This document shows, piece by piece, positions 1 to 13,984 of a stretch of 44,376 nucleotides of DNA (the first letter of the stretch is position 1; each line of letters opens with the position of its first letter). The notes beneath the pieces were generated by a model that was not told the DNA's origin, ran no database searches, and was given only the letters and a program-made list of their open reading frames with translations. Both the position numbers and the translations under genes were made by a program. This stretch comes from a virus (Duplodnaviria; Heunggongvirae; Uroviricota; Caudoviricetes), in IMG/VR virus record IMGVR_UViG_2541047881_000004, positions 1 to 44,376 of that record; one strand, given 5' to 3'.

Positions 1-906
1 GTGGATAGCGCACGCGCCCTTATTGCCCGGGGATGGGGAGTAAGCTTAGTCAGCCGTTGTCTCCGGGTGTCGCGTGCGCAGTTGCACGTAATTCTCAGAC
101 GAACCGATGACTGGAAAGATGGTCGCCGCAGCCGTCACTCAGATGATACGGATGTGCTTCTCCGTATACACCATGTTATCGGAGAGCTGCCCACGTATGG
201 TTATCGTCGGGTATGGGCGCTGCTTCGCAGACAGGCCGAACTTGATGGTATGCCTGCGATCAATGCCAAACGTGTTTACCGGATCATGCGCCAGAATGCG
301 CTGTTGCTTGAGCGAAAAACCGCTGTACCGCCATCGAAACGGGCACATACTGGCAAAGTGGCCGTGAAAGAAAGCAATCAACGATGGTGCTCTGACGGGT
401 TCGAGTTCCGCTGTGATAACGGAGAAAAACTGCGAGTCACGTTCGCGCTGGACTGCTGTGACCGTGAGGCACTGCACTGGGCAGTCACTACGGGCGGCTT
501 CGACAGTGAAACAGTACAGGACGTAATGCTGGGAGCGGTGGAACGCCGCTTCGGCAACGAGCTTCCGGCGTCTCCAGTAGAGTGGCTGACGGATAATGGT
601 TCATGCTACCGGGCTAATGAAACACGGCAGTTTGCCCGGATGTTGGGGCTTGAACCGAAGAACACGGCGGTGCGGAGTCCGGAGAGTAACGGCATAGCAG
701 AGAGCTTCGTGAAAACGATAAAGCGTGACTACATCAGTATCATGCCTAAACCAGACGGGTTAACGGCAGCAAAGAACCTTGCAGAGGCGTTCGAGCATTA
801 TAACGAATGGCATCCGCATAGTGCACTGGGTTATCGCTCGCCACGGGAATATCTGCGGCAGCAGGCCAGTAATGGGTTAAGTGATAACAGGTGTCTGGAA
901 ATATAG
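1..906 (+). CDS. insD: IS2 transposase OrfB (InsD), 5' end lies outside the window
   Basis: 301-aa ORF from the track; integrase-core transposase ending ...[31 protein letters not shown]. Confidence 0.9.
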
Positions 907-917
907 GGGCAAATCCA
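1..917 (+). mobile_element. IS2 insertion sequence, 3' portion (window starts inside the element); right terminal repeat ends at 917
   Basis: InsD-type transposase ORF followed by terminal sequence ...GGTGTCTGGAAATATAGGGGCAAATCCA, which matches the IS2 right end as I recall it. Confidence 0.85.
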
Positions 918-1477
918 CATATATTGAAGATAGGTATAAATATCTAACAAGCCTAAAGGGTTCCGTAATAGCAATCCGTATAAAACATTACAGCACCCTA
1001 TCCAAACAGATTATACCGTCTACTGATAACATTCATGCTGAGTTAAAGTTGCTTCTTTCAGAAGTTGCGGTGCGAGGTGATAACGATTATTACCGAATGG
1101 AAGTGGAAGAGTTAATAAAGTTGTTCGAGGGGAATGTTAAAGAGGCACATCTCAAGGATGAAGCTGACGTATTTTTAAGTAAACTACATCCAATTGCAGT
1201 AGAGATTAGATATAATCTTCAGGAAATGAATATTGAGGATTTAGCAACTAAGCATGGCGTGTTGATTTCAACACTTCCGAAAAATGCCCTGCATTACGTT
1301 CTTCAGAAAATGTTTACTTGGCTCCACTCTGATAGATATGACCCAATGGGTGGCTTTTACTTGGACAAGTTAAATGAATATTCAGGCGGGCGATACAATT
1401 TTTGTTCTGAGGATGATGACAGTACAACTCTATTGAAGCTCCGGATGATGTTGCATTGGTATCATCAACAAAAATAG
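918..1477 (+). pseudogene. AT-rich ORF of unknown function whose reading frame runs straight out of the IS2 end; probably a gene remnant disrupted at its 5' end by IS2
   Basis: ORF 881..1477 is open across the IS2 boundary at 917; first ATG outside IS2 is at 1097 and has no RBS. Confidence 0.3.
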
Positions 1478-1710
1478 GCTTAGCCACGAAAACAAGCAAT
1501 ACAGTTGGAAGTTCGTGTGACCTATGCGCTAGGTATTCTGAGACGACAGTGTGACCTGCTCCCTGTTGATTAACATAGGCTGACACTAGCAACGTCCTCT
1601 ACTGGCACATAGCAGCCCCAGAGACAGTGGTGTAAAGTCATGGAGGGTCGGTGGGAGGATATTCAGTTTCATTCATGCCGAAATACGGTAAAATCTATAA
1701 TAGATGGAAA

Positions 1711-1989
1711 TCATTCAATACTCGCACTAAAGTCCACCATCCAGCCGCAGCAAGTTCTTGCATACGACGTGTCTGCGGTTTTATATAATCCCAGCCGGTC
1801 CAGTTTCCAGACAATCAACTCATCTCCACTTTTCATCACCGTAATTAATTCCTTTAACACAGGGCGATTAGCTGTTCTGCCACTGGCATATTCTTCATAA
1901 ATTCGCTCACAGCCAGCTGACTCAAGTGCAAGACGTTGCAACTCTGTATCCTGATGATTTGTTGATACACGAACATACCCGTAAATCAT
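1711..1989 (-). pseudogene. pin: Truncated serine recombinase / DNA invertase (Pin/Gin/Hin family); only about the first 68 residues are invertase-like
   Basis: N-terminus MIYGYVRVSTNHQDTELQRLALESAGCE...DELIVWKLDRLG has the catalytic Ser motif of small invertases; similarity ends near nt 1786 and the ORF stops at 92 aa, so the C-terminal HTH domain is missing. Confidence 0.6.
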
Positions 1990-1994
1990 GAGTG

Positions 1995-2021
1995 CTTCTC
2001 CTGTTGTAAAAACAGGAGAAG
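1995..2021. repeat. 27-bp near-perfect palindrome CTTCTCCTGTTGTAAAAACAGGAGAAG directly upstream of the invertase start codon
   Basis: 13-bp arms with one mismatch around a central A; contains the AGGAG RBS of pin on the minus strand; candidate recombination site remnant or regulatory hairpin. Confidence 0.35.
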
Positions 2022-2056
2022 AGGCGAAATATCACCTGATTCAGAAAAATATTTGA

Positions 2057-2530
2057 AAGGTTGGTTTGGGAGAAACGATAAATAAAGCCTCCGGAGCTAT
2101 GCAGAAATCGGCTAATGGAGCTGATATTTCTGATGTATCAGCCTTCCGAAATGCGCTCCAGTTAGGGATCGCCGCAACACGAGATGTTGGAGCAGATAAT
2201 GCCTCGAAGTTACTGGATTTAGACAGCTTCAGGTCAATGATGTCAGGGAATGGCTACATCTACATTCCATGCATTGCGACGACAGGAAACCCGGTGAAAC
2301 TTATGTTGCAGTGGGGAACGGTGGCAACACAAAAGGGAGCTGATGCTGGATATGCCTTACCATTTGCTTTTCCCTATGCAGGCTTATTTGCGACCGGAAA
2401 CCGTGGAACATCTGGCTACAATGCCGCGATGAATGTGCGTATTGCCAGCAGAACGCATATCAGTATTCAGAACTGGTCGCCATCCGGAGAGGGCACCGAA
2501 GATTGTTGTTTTATCGCGCTGGGGTATTAA
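2057..2530 (+). other. Alternative side-tail-fibre C-terminal cassette, promoterless and oriented opposite to stf
   Basis: ORF 2066..2530; like stf it ends in ...GY and shows loose similarity to the stf C-terminal region; upstream in-frame stop at 2054-2056; arrangement typical of Mu G / e14 P invertible segments. Confidence 0.55.
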
Positions 2531-2532
2531 GA

Positions 2533-2943
2533 ATGAATAAATTTTATAAAGGCTCTTTCTATCCGAAAGCACTAAAAGAGGTATATATCAGCGCCGGTTC
2601 ATGGCCTGAAAATGGCGTTGATGTTGATGATGAAACAATGGCAATTTACACAGGCGTAGCGCCACAAGGCAAAACGCTGGGGGCTGATAAAAATGGTAAT
2701 CCTGCGTGGATTGATATCCCGCCACTCTCCGCTGAACAACAGATTATTCAGGCTGAACAGAAAAGAACGGTATTGCGTTCTATGGCTGATAAGGAAATAG
2801 CCTGGAGACAGGATGCTTTTGATGCGGAAATCGCGACGGCAGAAGAAACCGCCGCGTTATCTGAATGGAAAAAATACCGGGTCTTGCTGATGCGCGTTGA
2901 TACAGCAAAACCCGTATGGCCTGTCAATCCGCAGGATATTTAA
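2533..2943 (+). CDS. tfa: Tail fibre assembly chaperone (Tfa) belonging to the alternative cassette
   Basis: 136 aa from ATG 2533; C-terminus ...[27 protein letters not shown] matches the conserved Tfa C-terminal motif (lambda Tfa ...[22 protein letters not shown]...WP). Confidence 0.7.
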   Translation: [136 protein letters not shown]

Positions 2944-3157
2944 CGGGGGCGTTGTAGGTGGTGACATATTCAAGCAGTTCTGTTGGATATGTCACCGTTG
3001 CTGCATCTCGCTCTACGTTAAATGTATCCGCTCCCCAGATAACACACTCCCTCAAAAATGCCTCCACCTCTGGCGAGACTTCAACCGCATCATCAGGTCG
3101 CTCTTGTTCAGAAACATAAAAACCAACGGTCGTTGGGCTGAAATACATATTCTCCAT
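2924..3157 (-). CDS. Short Tfa-like ORF directly downstream of stf; probably a truncated tail fibre assembly gene
   Basis: 77 aa, MENMYFSPTTVGFYVSEQERPDDAVEVSPE... resembles the N-terminal motif of small Tfa chaperones, but the conserved C-terminal region is absent; its 3' end overlaps the 3' end of the plus-strand tfa. Confidence 0.4.
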   Translation of the reverse strand: MENMYFSPTTVGFYVSEQERPDDAVEVSPEVEAFLRECVIWGADTFNVERDAATVTYPTELLEYVTTYNAPVKYPAD

Positions 3158-3159
3158 AT

Positions 3160-6030
3160 TTAGTATCCTATTGCTTCAAAATGCAAAGTCGGAATTTCGC
3201 CGAGATTGGGTGTCGTATACGACACAGTGAATCGCGTTCTTGATACGTCAGTGCCAGAATCAGTATCGCGATGCGTTGCCAGTGATTTCCCAGCCATTGA
3301 TGACTGGGTCGAAAAGCTGTAACTCGCTAGTGTTGCCAGCGTTGCTATTTGTGCATTTGGGAATTGTCTGGGGAAATTAACCCTGTAGTAATGGGTGTAG
3401 TACAGCACTCCACCAAGAGTAATTGCGTTGAAATTACCAACAGGCGTCAGTGTCACAGTACCAACCTGTCGAATCATACCATTTGGGAGAATATCCCAGG
3501 CAGTTTGTCCGTTTCGCGACATACCAAATGCGGACATGTCCGGGAGTTGATTATTACCGGTTCCGACATTACGTTTTGCCGCTTCTCCCAATTGAAGGTA
3601 TGCGAGAAGACCAGCTACATCCTTTCCACTCAAATTAGTCAGCGTATTGTCCAGCGGTTGTTTGCCCGCCAGTGCGCTCTGTACTTCGCTTTTGCTGTAG
3701 GCATCCAGATCTTTAGGCGTAAGCGTAATATCCTTCGTGCCGTCAAACGGAACGCCGTTGATATTCCGTGCAGTCTGTAGTTTTGTGGCAGTTGCAGCAT
3801 TACCAGTGGTGTTCTGATTACCCGTAGTGTTTACACCTGGAAGGTTAATATTTGCAGAACCGTCGAAAACAACTCCACCGATAGATCTTGCCGTCTGCAA
3901 TTTCGTGGCTGTAGCAGCATTTCCTGAAAGACTTGAAATAAATGGATGTGAACAGTAATAACCTCGTCCATTTTTAAAGTCCAAAATTATCTGTGCATTC
4001 GTACTTTCTGATAAAGGATCAGTTGCCCCCCACTTATAAGTGGTTTGACCAACTGCATAATCAGCCGTTGGAACAATCACATTTAATCCTTCCTCAGCAA
4101 AAATATGGATAGGGAATGCTCTTGTCTCAACGTAAAATACACTACACAAATCATCATCTTTCACGCTTGCGATAATCGAGTGTATAGCTCGCTCAGCAGT
4201 AGAATATATTGAGAAAAAACCAGCCGCATATGAATCGCGATCAGACCAACCGCCAGGCATAACAAACCCATTAAATTCACAATTATTCATGGCGTATCCG
4301 CCAGCTGAGGAATAAGTGGTGATAACCACTCGTGAGGCTAATTCATCTGCGCCACCACCAGTTCGGCGAAAGACTACAGGATACCACTTACCGCTTACTG
4401 CATTTGCAGGAGCAGAGAAAGTGTATTTTCGCATCCCCTTTTTCTTATCCACTTCACCTTTGCTGTAAACATTAATGTTACTCAGGAAGCGGCCCTTGTC
4501 TGGGATATCAGCGCCATTCTGATTCTTCGCCAATCGGCTATTCGCATTGTCATTCGCAGCTTTAACTGCCTTTGGAGTTGCGGCCAGCGATTCACTGGTG
4601 CTATCAACAGCACTGCTAAGTTTCACAACACCTTTAGTTGTAAGGCTTGCGTCTTCCATCGCAACTGCACCGGCAATCTCTTCAGCACGATCAGCAGCAG
4701 CTTCCGCACGGGTCGCAGCGGATTCAGCAGCAGTTTTGCTCTGAGATGCTGCCGTCGCACTGCCTGCCGCCTCTGTTGCTTTCGTGGATGCCGTCGTGGC
4801 GCTGCCCTTCGCTGCTGACGCCTGTCTGGTCGCCTCATCTTTTGAAGCAGACGCAGATGATGCCGATGACGCTGCCGAACTGGCGGACGATGCGGCTGCC
4901 GTTTTTGAGGATTCTGCACGGGTTTCCGACGCTTTCGCATTCGTTTCGGATGTCTTCGCTGTGGAAGCAGACCTCGCTGCTGCGCTGGCCTGTACAGCGG
5001 CTTCGCCAGCCTTCGTTGTGGCTGTTGAAGCGGACGATGCAGCACTTTCTGCCGATTTTCCGGCGGCGGTGGCACTGGCTGAGGCCTGCCCGGCACTTGT
5101 TGACGCGGCACTGGCAGACGACGCAGCCGCTGTTTTTGAGCCTGCCGCAGCTGAGGCACTCTGTCCCGCTGCCGTTTCAGAAGCCTTGGCGTTCGTCTCG
5201 GACGTTTTTGCCGCCTTCGCAGAATTTGCTGTCGCCGTTGCCGAGGAAGCTGCGCTGCTGGCGCTCGAGGCTGCGCTCGTTTCTGATGATTTTGCCGCCT
5301 CTTTTGAAGCCGACGCATCCCGGGCTGAGGTGGCAGCTTCTGACGCTTTCGTGGTTGCGGTGGATGCTGAAGTGGCTGCTGATTGTTGTGACGCTGCCGC
5401 ATTCGTTTCTGACGTTTTTGCCGCAGCGGCACTGGTGGCCGCCGCGCTTTTTGAGGACTCTGCAGCGGCAGCACTTTTTGATGCTTCAGTGGCCTTTGCT
5501 GATGCCGTTCCTGCGCTGGAAGACGCTGACTGAGCCGACGAAGCGGCCTGTCCGGCTGACGTGCTGGCTGCGCGTGCTGAGCCTGCAGCATCAGTCGCAT
5601 GGGTTGCCGCCTCACGGGCAGATGTGCCGGCATCGCCGGCTGACTTCTTCGCGGCTGCCGTGTTCTGTGCCACTGCGGACGCGTTACGCGCCACCTCTTC
5701 CACCATCAGTTCAAAACGGCGCAGTGCCTCTGGCCGGACATCATCCTCCGTCATTGCACCGAGGAAATCATTCAGTGTGCCCGGCTTTGAGTCCTCATAT
5801 ACGGTGATAATCCCGGCGTGTGACGGCGGGAATCCCTCCACCAACAGACTGACGCTGTACTGACCATACTCGACGTCCATTGTGTAACGCCCGGCTTCAT
5901 CCGGGTTTTCTGAGGCCACTGTGTTCACCACCACCGTGGTGCTGTTGCGCCTGGCCTTTAGCTGAATGGTGCAGTTTTGTATCGGCTTACCTGCGCCATC
6001 TTTCAGTACACCTGAAATCCGTACTGCCAT
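3160..6030 (-). CDS. stf: Side tail fibre protein Stf with long Ala/Ser/Thr-rich repeat region
   Basis: 956 aa; N-terminus MAVRISGVLKDGAGKPIQNCTIQLKARRNSTTVVVNTV... close to lambda Stf; internal low-complexity repeats (AKTSETNAKASET..., TSAGQASSA...). Confidence 0.9.
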   Translation of the reverse strand: MAVRISGVLKDGAGKPIQNCTIQLKARRNSTTVVVNTVASENPDEAGRYTMDVEYGQYSVSLLVEGFPPSHAGIITVYEDSKPGTLNDFLGAMTEDDVRPEALRRFELMVEEVARNASAVAQNTAAAKKSAGDAGTSAREAATHATDAAGSARAASTSAGQAASSAQSASSSAGTASAKATEASKSAAAAESSKSAAATSAAAAKTSETNAAASQQSAATSASTATTKASEAATSARDASASKEAAKSSETSAASSASSAASSATATANSAKAAKTSETNAKASETAAGQSASAAAGSKTAAASSASAASTSAGQASASATAAGKSAESAASSASTATTKAGEAAVQASAAARSASTAKTSETNAKASETRAESSKTAAASSASSAASSASSASASKDEATRQASAAKGSATTASTKATEAAGSATAASQSKTAAESAATRAEAAADRAEEIAGAVAMEDASLTTKGVVKLSSAVDSTSESLAATPKAVKAANDNANSRLAKNQNGADIPDKGRFLSNINVYSKGEVDKKKGMRKYTFSAPANAVSGKWYPVVFRRTGGGADELASRVVITTYSSAGGYAMNNCEFNGFVMPGGWSDRDSYAAGFFSIYSTAERAIHSIIASVKDDDLCSVFYVETRAFPIHIFAEEGLNVIVPTADYAVGQTTYKWGATDPLSESTNAQIILDFKNGRGYYCSHPFISSLSGNAATATKLQTARSIGGVVFDGSANINLPGVNTTGNQNTTGNAATATKLQTARNINGVPFDGTKDITLTPKDLDAYSKSEVQSALAGKQPLDNTLTNLSGKDVAGLLAYLQLGEAAKRNVGTGNNQLPDMSAFGMSRNGQTAWDILPNGMIRQVGTVTLTPVGNFNAITLGGVLYYTHYYRVNFPRQFPNAQIATLATLASYSFSTQSSMAGKSLATHRDTDSGTDVSRTRFTVSYTTPNLGEIPTLHFEAIGY

Positions 6031-10972: not shown

Positions 10973-11607
10973 TTGTCGGTATACCTCTCTCGTTTGCTCA
11001 GTTGTTCAGGAATATGGTGCAGCAGCTCGCCGTCACCACAGTAAATGGCGGCATGATTCGGCACAGATGAACCAAAACAGCACAGCAGCACATCGCCCGG
11101 CTGCGCCGCTGACAGCGGCACCTGATACAGCCCTGTGGCCTCCAGATTATCCAGATAGAGATTCTGACCGTTACGCCACCAGTCATCCTCACGATGAAAA
11201 TCCGGCATCTCAATCCCCGCCAGATGGTAAGCATCCCGGAACAGCGTGTAACAGTCCGTCACCCCGTGCTCAAAGAGCCGCCCGGTGAGATGCGGCACAC
11301 AGCGGAACTTATGAATCGCCCCCCGGCAGACCAGCCACCACGGCAAATCACTCTGCACCTGCAGTCGCCGGTCGGCCTCACTCAGCCAGGGCAGACCACC
11401 GGGGTGGCTGTGGACCAGCGCCACAACCTCACCCTGCATTTCTGCCTGCAGCCAGTCTTCCGGCGACATACGGAAATACGCCTCCGGCTCACCGGAGATA
11501 TTCACGCAGGGGAAATATCTTTCCCCCTCCGGCGCTCTCACCACGAAGCCGCACGACTCCGCTGGCGCACATCGCCGGGCGTGCGCCAATATATTGCTAT
11601 AGAGCAT
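10870..11607 (-). CDS. K: Tail assembly protein K (MPN/JAMM plus NlpC/P60-like)
   Basis: Lambda K-like (…VCGFVV…HSHPGG…); start set at ATG 11607 with an AGGAG RBS 5 nt upstream; the ORF is open to 11646 and lambda K is annotated shorter, so the start is uncertain. Confidence 0.85.
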   Translation of the reverse strand: MLYSNILAHARRCAPAESCGFVVRAPEGERYFPCVNISGEPEAYFRMSPEDWLQAEMQGEVVALVHSHPGGLPWLSEADRRLQVQSDLPWWLVCRGAIHKFRCVPHLTGRLFEHGVTDCYTLFRDAYHLAGIEMPDFHREDDWWRNGQNLYLDNLEATGLYQVPLSAAQPGDVLLCCFGSSVPNHAAIYCGDGELLHHIPEQLSKRERYTDKWQRRTHSLWRHRAWHASAFTGIYNDLAAASTFV

Positions 11608-11618
11608 GAGAACTCCTG

Positions 11619-11642
11619 ATAAAAAACCCAGCCGAAGCTGGG
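11619..11642 (-). terminator. Intrinsic terminator between ant and K
   Basis: Minus-strand RNA CCCAGC-UUCG-GCUGGG followed by UUUUUUAU. Confidence 0.6.
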
Positions 11643-11661
11643 TCATTTCGTTGGCAATCTG

Positions 11662-12597
11662 TTAGTAGTGATGCAGTGAAGGAGGTAATTCTTTGTTCTT
11701 AAGCCTTACCCATGCGGAAAGATTCGTTGGTCCGTCTGGCTCATTAATATCAACATCTCGTGTGTGATTGATTAAAACGTCTCTCGCCATTCCAATAACA
11801 TACGAGAACTCATGGCCGTAGTCGTAGCACCTGCCAAAATAGTTTGATTGAATTTGCTTTAGCGCCGGATACAGTTCGCGGAATAATGCCTGTGAGCGGT
11901 TGGCATAATCCCATAACCATACAAGGCTGTTTGCTTCTTTTGCAGAAAGCTCGTTGGTTTTCTTCTCTTGTTTTCCGATGAATTCGCCTTCAAGTGGAAT
12001 ACGAGCAGCAAGTGACAGTGCTTCGGTAAACTGCTCCTCACTGATTTCTTTGTACGAACATCCAAAATGGGATTTCAGTGACGACCACATGGTGATCATC
12101 GCCTTCGCCTGTTTTTCTTTTGGCAGAGACTGACCGCGACTCATGACGAGTTGTTTAATAGCTTCCTGCTGTTCAGTGGTGATTTTACCCGGCAACGCCT
12201 TTTTAGCTTTGCGCGGGTTAACCACATGGCCTTTAGTCCAGTAGTCATGCAGCACAGTAAAGCATTCTTCCTGGTACTGAATCAGTTTATCGCGGATGTC
12301 AGCACGAACTTTCTCAGGGTTGATGCTGAACAGCCATCCATTTAACTTCTTCAAAGGAAGGCAGAGTAGCTTACGAAGCTTCCCATCAGCAGCAACCATA
12401 TTCATATGAATACAGTTGAACTTATCTAGTTGTTTCATAAGTTTTTGTTGCTGAGTACCCCAGCTCATTCCGAGGTTTTCAACGATTGGCTTCATCGCAA
12501 CATATGCAACTCCTGCAGCCATGGCGGTGATAATTTGCTGACCGTTGAAGGATACGTAAGAGGTGCTCACTGCTTCTAAAATTGCTATACTATTCAT
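11662..12597 (-). CDS. ant: Antirepressor (P22 Ant-like)
   Basis: 312 aa from ATG 12597 ([10 protein letters not shown]...); sits downstream of an arc-like gene as in the P22 immI operon; longest ORF extends to 12720 but those codons overlap arc (alternative start 12678). Confidence 0.7.
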
Positions 12598-12669
12598 ATC
12601 AGTTTTCTCGTAGTTAACTGGTAATTTAGAAGCCTCAATGGTTGCAGCCATTGAGGCTTCGCTGTTTTT
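12598..12669 (+). ncRNA. sar: Candidate sar-like antisense RNA covering the ant translation-initiation region
   Basis: Plus-strand extended -10 element TGCTATACT (12583-12591) inside the 5' end of ant; about 72 nt downstream a 13-bp perfect stem (12629-12641 / 12648-12660, GAAGCCTCAATGG...CCATTGAGGCTTC) followed by GCTGTTTTT; by analogy with P22 sar. Confidence 0.35.
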
Positions 12670-12841
12670 AGCGACCATTCGCCACCTCTTCCCTAACACC
12701 TTTTGCCAGCAAACGAACAATTGCAGAGTTCAGAGATATACAGTCCATTTCCGCCAGGCGGCGAAGGTCTTCATTCAGCCGTGATGGAAGGCGAAGGTTG
12801 AGTTTGATATTTTTGCGCTCAGTGAAAAGTGTATCTTGCAT
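12668..12841 (-). CDS. arc: Arc-like ribbon-helix-helix repressor
   Basis: 57-aa ORF below the track size cutoff, translated by hand: [57 protein letters not shown]; matches the Arc/Mnt pattern NLR.P...L....AE....S.NS.I; GGAG RBS 8 nt upstream. Confidence 0.65.
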
Positions 12842-12948
12842 TATCTAATCTCCTTTATGTGGTGCCAAAGTGACGCCATGAAGGCCATAATGCCACCATT
12901 GAAATCGTATGGCAATATGGCACCATGATTTTTTTTGAGAGATTTGCA
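12842..12948. promoter_or_regulatory. Divergent promoter/operator region between arc-ant and mnt
   Basis: On the minus strand TTGCCA-17 nt-CATTAT reads toward arc; repeated ATGGTG(C/G)CA motifs are operator candidates. Confidence 0.4.
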
Positions 12949-13269
12949 ATGGCCGAAAAACAAGTAAAAGACTACGACAAGTTCAACCTCCGTTTTCCTG
13001 ACGGAATGCGAGATGCTATAGCTGAACGAGCCAAACGAAACGGGCGCTCTATGAACTCAGAGATTGTTCAGATACTGGAAGATGCCTTGAATGCAGAAAA
13101 TACACTCGGGGAAATAGCAGATAAAATTAACAGCGTCTCGGTTCCGCTAAATGTTGATGCGCTAGTTCAACTTCAAGCCCAGGTTATCGCCATGCAAAAA
13201 GAAATACAGGAAAAGTTCAGAGAGCAGAACGAAAAGTTGAGAGAACTGCTAAACAAAAAACCCACCTGA
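12949..13269 (+). CDS. mnt: Mnt-like ribbon-helix-helix repressor
   Basis: 106 aa from ATG 12949; ...FNLRFPDGMRDAIAERAKRNGRSMNSEIVQILEDAL closely matches P22 Mnt (...NGRSMNSELLQIVQDAL); transcribed divergently from arc-ant. Confidence 0.75.
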   Translation: MAEKQVKDYDKFNLRFPDGMRDAIAERAKRNGRSMNSEIVQILEDALNAENTLGEIADKINSVSVPLNVDALVQLQAQVIAMQKEIQEKFREQNEKLRELLNKKPT

Positions 13270-13276
13270 CGGTGGG
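13251..13276 (-). terminator. Intrinsic terminator downstream of L, overlapping the mnt stop codon
   Basis: Minus-strand RNA CCCACC-GUCA-GGUGGG followed by UUUUUUGUUU. Confidence 0.55.
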
Positions 13277-13285
13277 CATAATCCA

Positions 13286-13984
13286 TTACTGCGAAAGTTT
13301 GTTAATGGAAAGGAAGCCGCCAAAGTTGCCGACGTTATTGCGAAACTTACAGCCGCTCAGGCATTTGCTGCATTTATCCTTCGTGATATCGGACGTCGGC
13401 TGGTCATATTCATCCGCGACAGCCGGACCGTGATAACCGCACTCATCACCGCGATAGGTCCAGGTGCAGGTGTTGGCCAGCATGATACGTCCCGGAAAAA
13501 CAGCGCCGTCCGTTTCCGTCGGCGTGGACAGTACAAAGGAGGCACTGACCGCGCTCAGTTCGCTGCACTGCTCGATGCGCCAGCGACTGATCACCTCCTG
13601 CTCCGGATCGGCGTCGCTGTTTCCGTTGACGAAGTTCACCGCATCCAGAAAACGGGCGTAAACCTTACGCCTGACCACCGTTCCGCCGACCAGACTCTGC
13701 AGATCTTCCGCCATCCCGGTGACCATACCGTACAGGTTAGAAACCGTCAGCGTGGGGCGCGTACTGGTGCCTTTGCCATTCAGTTCAAAACCGCTCCCCT
13801 GAATGGGATACGCCTGATACTGTCGCCCCTGCCAGGTGACCGGCTCACCTTTTTCGTTCTGCTCATTACAGAAAAAATAACGTTCTCCACCGACCTCTGT
13901 CAGATCGATCTCCCAGAGCACCACGCTGGCCGACTGCTCCGCACGGGTGCATTCATTCAGTGTTTCCTGCCGGATATCCTGCAT
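13286..13984 (-). CDS. L: Tail tip protein L
   Basis: 232 aa, MQDIRQETLNECTRAEQSAS..., lambda L-like. Confidence 0.95.
   Translation of the reverse strand: MQDIRQETLNECTRAEQSASVVLWEIDLTEVGGERYFFCNEQNEKGEPVTWQGRQYQAYPIQGSGFELNGKGTSTRPTLTVSNLYGMVTGMAEDLQSLVGGTVVRRKVYARFLDAVNFVNGNSDADPEQEVISRWRIEQCSELSAVSASFVLSTPTETDGAVFPGRIMLANTCTWTYRGDECGYHGPAVADEYDQPTSDITKDKCSKCLSGCKFRNNVGNFGGFLSINKLSQ

Follow-up and report, generated by a model that had tools for sequence, protein, structure and literature searches.

A 44,376-nucleotide (nt) stretch of DNA from a virus of the class Caudoviricetes (IMG/VR record IMGVR_UViG_2541047881_000004; the whole stretch is referred to here as the window) opens inside a copy of the insertion sequence (IS) IS2, which is directly followed by the 3′ half of an accessory gene. 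The favored reading, with a probability of roughly 0.88, is that IS2 inserted into a cargo gene next to the attachment (att) site of a lambdoid prophage integrating at thrW, giving a null allele. The IS2 end, the identity of the gene remnant to intact alleles, the absence of the gene's N-terminal half from the window, and the att-proximal position were observed directly. Reference loci in Escherichia coli are those of strains 5CRE51 (L001), STB20-1 (L002), and Res13-Lact-ER02-39 (L004). The features at the left edge of the window are as follows.

1 to 917, plus strand: right-hand 917 bp of IS2, including the InsD/OrfB open reading frame (ORF) at 1 to 906 (domain matches and alignment to L004)
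877 to 917, plus strand: IS2 right inverted repeat (IRR), 41 bp, ending ...GGGGCAAATCCA (same terminus as the L004 IS2)
918 to 922, plus strand: predicted right copy of a 5-bp target duplication, CATAT (the other IS2 end lies outside the window)
917 to 1477, plus strand: 3′ remnant of a gene for a 379-amino-acid (aa) protein, codons 194 to 379 (186 aa) plus stop, a pseudogene fragment (100% nt identity to L001 6000 to 6560, within an intact 1140-bp coding sequence [CDS])
1478 to 1778, plus strand: noncoding DNA normally found 3′ of the gene (100% identical to L001 6561 to 6861 and 99.9% identical to L002)

Right end of IS2

Positions 1 to 906 form an uninterrupted ORF of 301 aa with Pfam matches to rve, the DDE integrase core (E = 8.5e-20), rve_3 (1.7e-18), and HTH_21 (4.8e-11); an OrfB transposase with this core is the one expected of IS2. 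Positions 1 to 917 aligned without gaps and at 96% identity to L004 6916 to 7832, the right part of a complete IS2 copy annotated as "IS3-like element IS2 family transposase." That copy is 1331 bp long, begins TAGACTGGCCCC, ends GGGGCAAATCCA, and is bracketed by the 5-bp target duplication ATTCA. Its flank and duplication start directly after ...AAATCCA, the same terminus as at window position 917. The IRR (41 bp in IS2 [PMC3299598]) and the nucleotide identity to an annotated copy likewise assign the element to IS2, and more than 1,000 E. coli records matched, at ≥99% identity, a query that takes in the region from 1 to 917. The window opens 414 bp inside the element, and about that length of IS2 lies off its left edge. 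A complete 1331-bp IS2 also has orfA, a programmed frameshift, and a left repeat. GC content was 52 to 57% inside IS2 and 37 to 39% over positions 901 to 1500. A first-pass annotation made from the letters of the sequence had described a window opening inside IS2, with an InsD ORF and a terminal repeat ending at 917, and the domain matches and the L004 alignment both agree. In intact loci, the target sequence at the insertion point reads ...GCTAATTA followed by CATATATTGAAG, with the insertion point between the two.

Gene remnant and intact alleles

The reading frame adjoining IS2 is open from a GTG at 881, inside the element, through the stop codon at 1475 to 1477. The part outside IS2 (917 to 1477) comprises exactly 186 codons, with its first ATG at 1097, and inspection by eye showed none of the internal ATG or GTG candidates to be preceded by an obvious Shine-Dalgarno sequence; the ORF is thus AT rich, open across the IS2 boundary, and lacking a convincing start of its own, as had been noted from the sequence. 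Positions 917 to 1778 were 100% identical to L001 6000 to 6861 in the intact 5CRE51 locus, and homology starts exactly at the IS2 end. The remnant corresponds to residues 194 to 379 of the 379-aa protein, starting ...T-Y-I-E-D-R-Y-K-Y-L, and is not a full-length two-part family protein, which combines a conserved N-terminal half with a helical C-terminal half. The 5′ 580 bp of the gene, coding for the N-terminal half, were not found anywhere in the 44-kb window. The window allele is null: the conserved N-terminal half is gone, and the remaining tail, co-oriented with insD, has no start codon of its own. The loss amounts to a null allele because the half taken away by IS2 carries most of the conserved residues, and the fragment presumably yields no functional product.

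When window positions 918 to 1710 were compared by megablast with 5,426 complete E. coli genomes, a minority of strains had the sequence. In the three contexts inspected (5CRE51, STB20-1, and E6), it was the 3′ part of a 1140-bp CDS annotated as "hypothetical protein." The intact protein is WP_057077950.1/WP_000784327.1 and also Orf54 of phage phi458 (OP434518.1, UYE91787.1), which was obtained as plaques on E. coli MC1061 from a spontaneously induced prophage of the avian pathogenic E. coli (APEC) strain DE458 (PMC9701743). A whole-gene search found the gene in 48 of the 5,426 genomes at ≥99.6% nt identity. Of these carriers, 42 had it at full length; the other six, all isolates from a single study series (Res13), had it truncated beside IS5, which was taken as one event. 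The proposal that IS2 landed in a preexisting accessory gene is therefore borne out by the intact 1140-bp allele in 42 complete genomes and phi458, with homology from position 917 onward.

The 3′ halves of phi458 orf54 and of the RefSeq alleles were 99.9 to 100% nt identical to the window remnant, and phi458 has the same downstream spacer, pin remnant, and tail fiber cassette. The phi458 and RefSeq alleles are intact at 379 aa, whereas the window allele lacks codons 1 to 193, and the tail fiber region of phi458 contains an IS1 that is absent from the window.

Location at the thrW attachment site

Each of the three intact loci has, about 400 bp before the start codon of the gene, a 48- to 57-nt sequence identical to the 3′ end of tRNA-Thr thrW. 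This sequence also forms the right boundary of the cryptic prophage CP4-6 in K-12 and is present at both ends of the phi458 GenBank record, next to the integrase. The thrW-derived repeat is an att site, and the disrupted gene is the cargo gene nearest to it in a thrW-integrating lambdoid phage. Downstream of the gene, the order is pin, an invertible cassette (alternative tail fiber C terminus plus tfa), the long side tail fiber gene, lom, and J.

Cargo in and around this slot varied. Between the gene and pin, an RnlA/RnlB toxin-antitoxin pair was found in L001 and an EcoRII-type restriction-modification system with a GIY-YIG protein in L002; an ABC-three-component system or a second integrase island was found on the upstream side. 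The second island of 5CRE51 is inserted in tandem at the thrW-derived att repeat, immediately before the intact gene (L001 3610 to 4818 and 461 to 3368; repeat at 4980 to 5027), and encodes a tyrosine integrase, an HsdM-family methylase, and an ORC/CDC6-family AAA ATPase.

The att-proximal slot is equivalent to the nonessential b region of lambda, and the pin-mcrA end of e14 is likewise a comparable nonessential att-proximal region. As in other att-proximal cargo regions of temperate phages, a lone AT-rich nonstructural gene lies here between the tail fiber/invertase module and the att site. Known examples include P2 old/tin and other P2/P4 cargo hotspots (PMC9122126, PMC13586616); in contrast to such hotspots, a defense role for the family of the disrupted gene is a guess, with no match to a PADLOC model.

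An unannotated noncoding piece of about 207 bp downstream of the remnant (window 1575 to 1781), which ends in a terminator-like hairpin at 1743 to 1780, recurred at 93 to 95% identity in both other E. coli islands aligned (L029 4001 to 4211; L030 4001 to 4192 and 8017 to 8115). Shorter matches to it (87 to 99%) were found in roughly 90 further genomes, for example, beside a SMEK-domain gene in a CP4-like island and between an IS3 and a Bro-N gene.

Origin of the insertion

In the proposed mechanism, IS2 would have transposed into codon 194/195 of the 1140-bp accessory gene by the copy-out/paste-in route via a minicircle, normally with a 5-bp target duplication, and the insertion would split the conserved N-terminal half (residues 1 to 193) from the more variable helical C-terminal half. 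The other IS2 end would be expected to abut the 5′ half of the gene with the CATAT duplication, rather than to border an IS2-mediated deletion. A simple insertion would put ...GATGAGCTAATTACATAT (also written ...GAGCTAATTACATAT) directly before the IS2 left end, TAGACTGGCCCC.

Two points weigh against this reading. The window does not reach the left end of IS2, the target duplication, or the 5′ half of the gene, and the exact IS2/gene junction was found neither in the 5,426 complete E. coli genomes nor in contig collections of viruses, GTDB genomes, and metagenomes. A deletion or rearrangement associated with IS2 would therefore look the same as a simple insertion in these data. No exact match to the 198-aa product of the read-through ORF turned up either.

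In the alternative case, IS2 would mark an IS2-mediated deletion or inversion that removed or relocated the 5′ portion of the gene, possibly together with the att site and neighboring chromosome, leaving a truly eroded prophage end. This would fit a 44-kb window that contains no trace of the 5′ half, begins inside IS2, and includes no sequence further left. A precedent for IS-associated loss at the locus exists in L004, where an IS5 adjoining a truncated ecpD cuts the gene short. Such an event is nevertheless unlikely here: no positive evidence points to it, IS2 ends cleanly at one position of a locus that is otherwise 100% identical, and at least one other disrupted allele keeps both halves (a 199-aa N-terminal partial product, P0269, is on record).

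Other disrupted alleles

A look-up of the 126-aa product predicted from the ATG at 1097 returned three draft contigs (L020, L021, and L022) that break just upstream of it. One junction, at window-equivalent position ~932, is at what we take to be an IS1 end; another, at ~952 and at the sequence CTAA, is presumably at an IS5-type end; and the third, at ~905, is joined to DNA without an assigned identity. Together with IS2 at 917, these junctions make four breakpoints within 47 bp of very AT-rich sequence (window 905 to 956; L001 5988 to 6035). In L004, an annotated IS5 truncates the gene at 1175.

Recurrent IS hits could be a sign of selection, if the intact gene were costly or toxic in the manner of some abortive-infection genes and its disruption were favored. 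The number of breakpoints in so rare a gene, at least three to four besides the IS2 of the window, with four breakpoints (this IS2 included) within 47 bp, is what such selection might produce. We nonetheless regard it as improbable. The gene is intact in 42 of the 48 complete-genome carriers, at ≥99.6% identity, and in the viable phage phi458, and the breakpoints cluster in a very AT-rich stretch that contains CTAA. IS1 and IS5 are reported to prefer targets of this kind. The look-up that found these alleles was itself biased, as a search with the 126-aa product favors breakpoints shortly upstream of codon 254. Local target-site preference is tentatively favored over selection against the gene, because the look-up was biased and most complete genomes keep the gene intact.

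Candidate outward promoter and downstream hairpin

The right repeat of IS2 carries an outward −35 element that serves the minicircle-junction promoter and that, joined with a −10 element in the flank, can give rise to fusion promoters (PMC3299598, PMC9330008), as documented at ampC (Jaurin and Normark 1983, cited in PMC9330008). The junction promoter itself requires a spacer of 17 bp (PMC3299598). Two features of the window are relevant.

896 to 925, plus strand: candidate fusion-promoter-like site, with −35 TGGAAA at 896 to 901 in the IRR, an 18-bp spacer, and −10 TATATT at 920 to 925 in the flank (consensus scan, 9 of 12)
1743 to 1786, plus strand: terminator-like hairpin at 1743 to 1780, then UUUUAUAU (minimum free energy of −14.2 kcal/mol; z = −2.84 versus shuffles)

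An adaptive insertion, in which the IS2 −35 element and the flanking TATATT form a fusion promoter that switches on downstream DNA, has some basis in these data. TGGAAA lies where the junction −35 element should be, by our own spacing calculation from the cited descriptions; TATATT matches five of six −10 positions and follows after 18 bp; and IS2 fusion promoters are documented, as at ampC (PMC9330008). Even so, we consider this highly improbable. Promoter-like sites in the region were no more numerous than in shuffled sequences (3 found versus 3.3 expected), and the spacer, at 18 bp, is one longer than the optimum of 17 (ATATAT offers an alternative −10 element in the flank after 17 bp). Downstream lies only a start-less gene tail and then the hairpin, past which are the antisense strand of a dead pin and a tail fiber cassette without an N terminus. 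Read-through from insD would likewise cover only the gene tail, and we see no plausible beneficiary of an IS2-borne promoter here. The suggestion that the outward-facing IS2 end could supply promoter activity to flanking DNA thus holds in principle, the known −35 element being present, but is not supported at this site, where the match is at chance level and only a dead fragment precedes the hairpin.

Like known IS2 insertions in E. coli, including fusion-promoter cases such as ampC, this one involves the same element with an rve-type OrfB, a 41-bp right repeat ending ...CA with its outward −35 element, an AT-rich target, and an element co-oriented with the target gene. It differs from the insertion at ampC in lying within the coding sequence, with knockout rather than activation as the outcome, and from fusion-promoter cases in that the −10 candidate is 18 bp away, nothing functional lies downstream, and the right end alone is visible.

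The hairpin was found only by alignment and folding; a simple terminator scan missed 1743 to 1780. It is kept downstream of the intact gene in L001 and L002, with a related copy just 3′ of the intact pinE in L002, and likely forms the 3′ end of the gene's transcript. Given the related copy 3′ of pinE, it behaves like a terminator between convergent genes. Simple scans for a moron-type promoter or terminator around the intact gene gave nothing above chance.

That the ORF is a chance frame running from IS2 into AT-rich noncoding DNA, for which the GTG inside IS2, the lack of a convincing start, and the lack of a Pfam match for the fragment could be cited, can be dismissed: a 379-aa CDS intact in 42 complete genomes and phi458 has these same 186 codons as its C-terminal half, the intact protein folds in prediction with a predicted local distance difference test (pLDDT) score of 91.9, and the homology search that the first-pass annotation had proposed, an outcome without homologues anywhere being its sign of an artifact, found 146 to ≥662 homologue clusters in Gammaproteobacteria, Epsilonproteobacteria, and Leptospiraceae.

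pin remnant and state of the prophage end

Downstream of the hairpin, on the opposite strand, the invertase gene pin is truncated.

1711 to 1989, minus strand: pin serine-invertase remnant, of which codons 1 to 67 are genuine (~1789 to 1989) and the last 25 codons are flanking DNA; the C-terminal DNA-binding part is missing

The ORF has 92 codons, and residues 2 to 67 matched positions 1 to 76 of the 145 in the Resolvase profile. Alignment with the intact 184-aa PinE of STB20-1 (L002) stops at ...VWKLDRLG, residue 67. The truncation of pin reported earlier is thus confirmed, with 67 genuine codons and a partial Resolvase match, and the remnant falls short of a serine invertase, which has a Resolvase domain and a C-terminal helix-turn-helix. 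Like Pin, Gin, and Hin, it combines an N-terminal resolvase catalytic domain with a location next to an alternative tail fiber C terminus/tfa cassette; unlike them, it retains only codons 1 to 67, has no DNA-binding C terminus, and cannot act in cis. With pin truncated, the tail fiber orientation is locked unless another invertase acts in trans.

Window positions 917 to 2481 were 99.94% identical to phi458 43295 to 41731, and phi458 carries the same 279-nt "DNA invertase" remnant along with an undisrupted copy of the 379-aa gene. Hence pin was truncated before the IS2 event, and a phage can be viable with the truncation. The first-pass annotation had called this a decayed prophage end. It is a prophage end, with the thrW att repeat about 400 bp from the gene, but "decayed" is not supported, as the same pin remnant, spacer, and gene occur in a plaque-forming phage. 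A sampling of the main lambdoid modules, which does not bear on the integrity of each gene, found terminase, portal, S49 protease, and capsid genes (by the annotation of similar prophages), the tail cluster, and genes for a Q antiterminator, an antirepressor, and an ERF recombinase. Of the changes at this end, only the IS2 insertion can be assigned to this lineage.

In 5CRE51, pin is independently truncated, with a breakpoint near codon 97, suggesting that pin is worn away repeatedly as cargo turns over at the slot. The junction at which pin is cut short immediately adjoins the hairpin (window 1743 to 1789; L002 10996 to 11040), and pin codons 64 to 70 resemble the last codons of intact pinE plus the downstream hairpin (~16 of 22 nt by eye), suggesting a microhomology-mediated internal deletion of pin. 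The restriction-modification cargo of L002 is bracketed by two copies of the hairpin.

In the invertible tail fiber region (window 2066 to 3157 and 3160 to 6030), a Gp53-like C-terminal cassette and tfa on the plus strand face tfa′ and the gene for a 956-aa side tail fiber, which has a long Ala/Ser-rich low-complexity tract, on the minus strand. A search of positions 1 to 3200 against Rfam gave only a subthreshold IS009 match in the tfa region (2733 to 2909; 37.5 bits against a gathering score of 117). Farther along, the ORF at 11662 to 12720 on the minus strand encodes a 352-aa P22-type antirepressor homologue (P22_AR_N plus P22_AR_C). It lies in a stretch of about 1.7 kb (11588 to 13286) that breaks the otherwise collinear tail gene alignment with phi458, and is apparently a moron carried within the tail gene cluster.

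Protein family of the disrupted gene

Word-indexed searches gave 146 hits of 360 to 385 aa in Enterobacterales, Vibrionaceae, Pasteurellaceae, Moritella, Marinomonas, Aliarcobacter, and Leptospiraceae, and a full profile scan recovered 662 representative clusters (50% identity) at E ≤ 1e-3, so that the family comprises at least 662 clusters. All named members were labeled "hypothetical" or "uncharacterized." Among 70 members, the motifs CSCMDW (47 to 52), DDDxYFxxIRxxFGAHP (126 to 143), and FASWP (155 to 159) were invariant or nearly so. Among 40 distant members, D128, F139, and H142 were invariant and S48, D51, W52, D85, R136, S157, and W158 were ≥90% conserved; most of the conserved polar residues (S48, D51, W52, D85, D128, R136, H142, and S157) lie in the N-terminal half. 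An AlphaFold2 model of the intact protein (pLDDT, 91.9; predicted template modeling score [pTM], 0.84) shows a helical N-terminal domain that includes a small sheet of three strands, after which comes a long helical bundle.

Members were found as lone genes in a range of mobile contexts. In a P2-like prophage, a 72%-identical paralogue lies between ogr and gpD and has a hok/gef gene beside it (L023, Escherichia fergusonii CP079891.1, 6533 to 9383); its cluster (P0007/P0275) is present on hundreds of E. coli and E. fergusonii contigs and is much commoner than the lambdoid-borne allele. Other members occur in an SXT/R391-type integrative and conjugative element (ICE), between traN and the ssb-bet-exo module, and on IncF-type conjugative plasmids, beside AbiH and a PIN protein. 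Island contexts included Mrr with an AAA_13 ATPase; a type I methylase; a 1273-aa SIR2 protein; Eco57I and Alw26I restriction-modification genes with an integrase; ParE, HsdR-N, AAA_15, and MjaI restriction-modification genes; and a Gabija-like pair of AAA_15/OLD-TOPRIM and UvrD. Nearly all of the ~14 contexts sampled were prophages, ICEs, plasmids, or integrase islands, and about 10 of the 14 had restriction-modification, abortive-infection (Abi), RnlAB, SIR2, Gabija-like, ABC-three-component (ABC-3C), or Mrr genes within 7 kb. As an association, this neighborhood pattern is typical of genes for antiphage defense or competition between elements.

On the strength of context, the intact protein may tentatively be regarded as a stand-alone antiphage or interelement competition factor expressed from the prophage. 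A more specific proposal is doubtful: a new single-gene defense family, maybe a hydrolase acting through D128, H142, and S157 (with R136), with the C-terminal half as sensor or specificity part and the IS hits as turnover of a costly immune gene. The D128/H142/S157 triad is speculation.

Several results count against this functional guess. The full-length protein had no match in Pfam, PADLOC, NCBIfam, or PHROGs. In PADLOC-DB 2.0, no family matched at E ≤ 1, and the protein does not classify with a known defense system. The best noise matches were far below cutoffs (YHS, E = 0.1 to 0.2; DfrI, 0.028; one PHROG, 0.02), and the 40 distant members had no common Pfam family. No fold relative was found among Protein Data Bank (PDB) chains and viral (BFVD) models, the Foldseek search of the viral models being empty, and sequence-profile searches of the PDB with the full protein and the N-terminal domain gave nothing below E = 0.03. 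The ~14 contexts are a nonrandom sample considered without a background comparison. The literature gave no results for the accessions or for DUF6037.

Three specific assignments were considered. A HEPN ribonuclease (Rx4-6H in a four-helix-bundle fold) was suggested by an R-x5-H arrangement and weak HEPN/AbiA hits, with no support above background. A PD-(D/E)xK nuclease (D51...D71-V-K73) was rejected, as the residues fall in predicted helices rather than strands. A DUF6037 gene located 4 bp upstream in Proteus mirabilis (L013) was not seen in other contexts and so is not the partner in a fixed two-gene system.

Three metagenomic members of 623 to 626 aa (P0109, P0116, and P0118) have an extra N-terminal domain of about 250 aa without a Pfam match. 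One extended member (L012) has RadC, two AlpA regulators, and a type I methylase as neighbors, and one distant family member is fused to DUF6577.

Significance

RefSeq already lists the gene as hypothetical, and the knockout of a prophage cargo gene by IS2 is a routine event, ordinary genome wear that matters little as such. A truncated pin next to a tail fiber cassette is no evidence of a dead prophage, as a plaque-forming phage has the same layout. What the disrupted gene flags is an unannotated family whose fold is predicted with confidence, which has no relative among the searched structures, and which travels as lone mobile cargo. The residual interest lies in this uncharacterized, widely mobile protein family hit by the insertion and in the function of the intact gene, for which the intact allele WP_000784327.1 is a cheap candidate for phage challenge screening.

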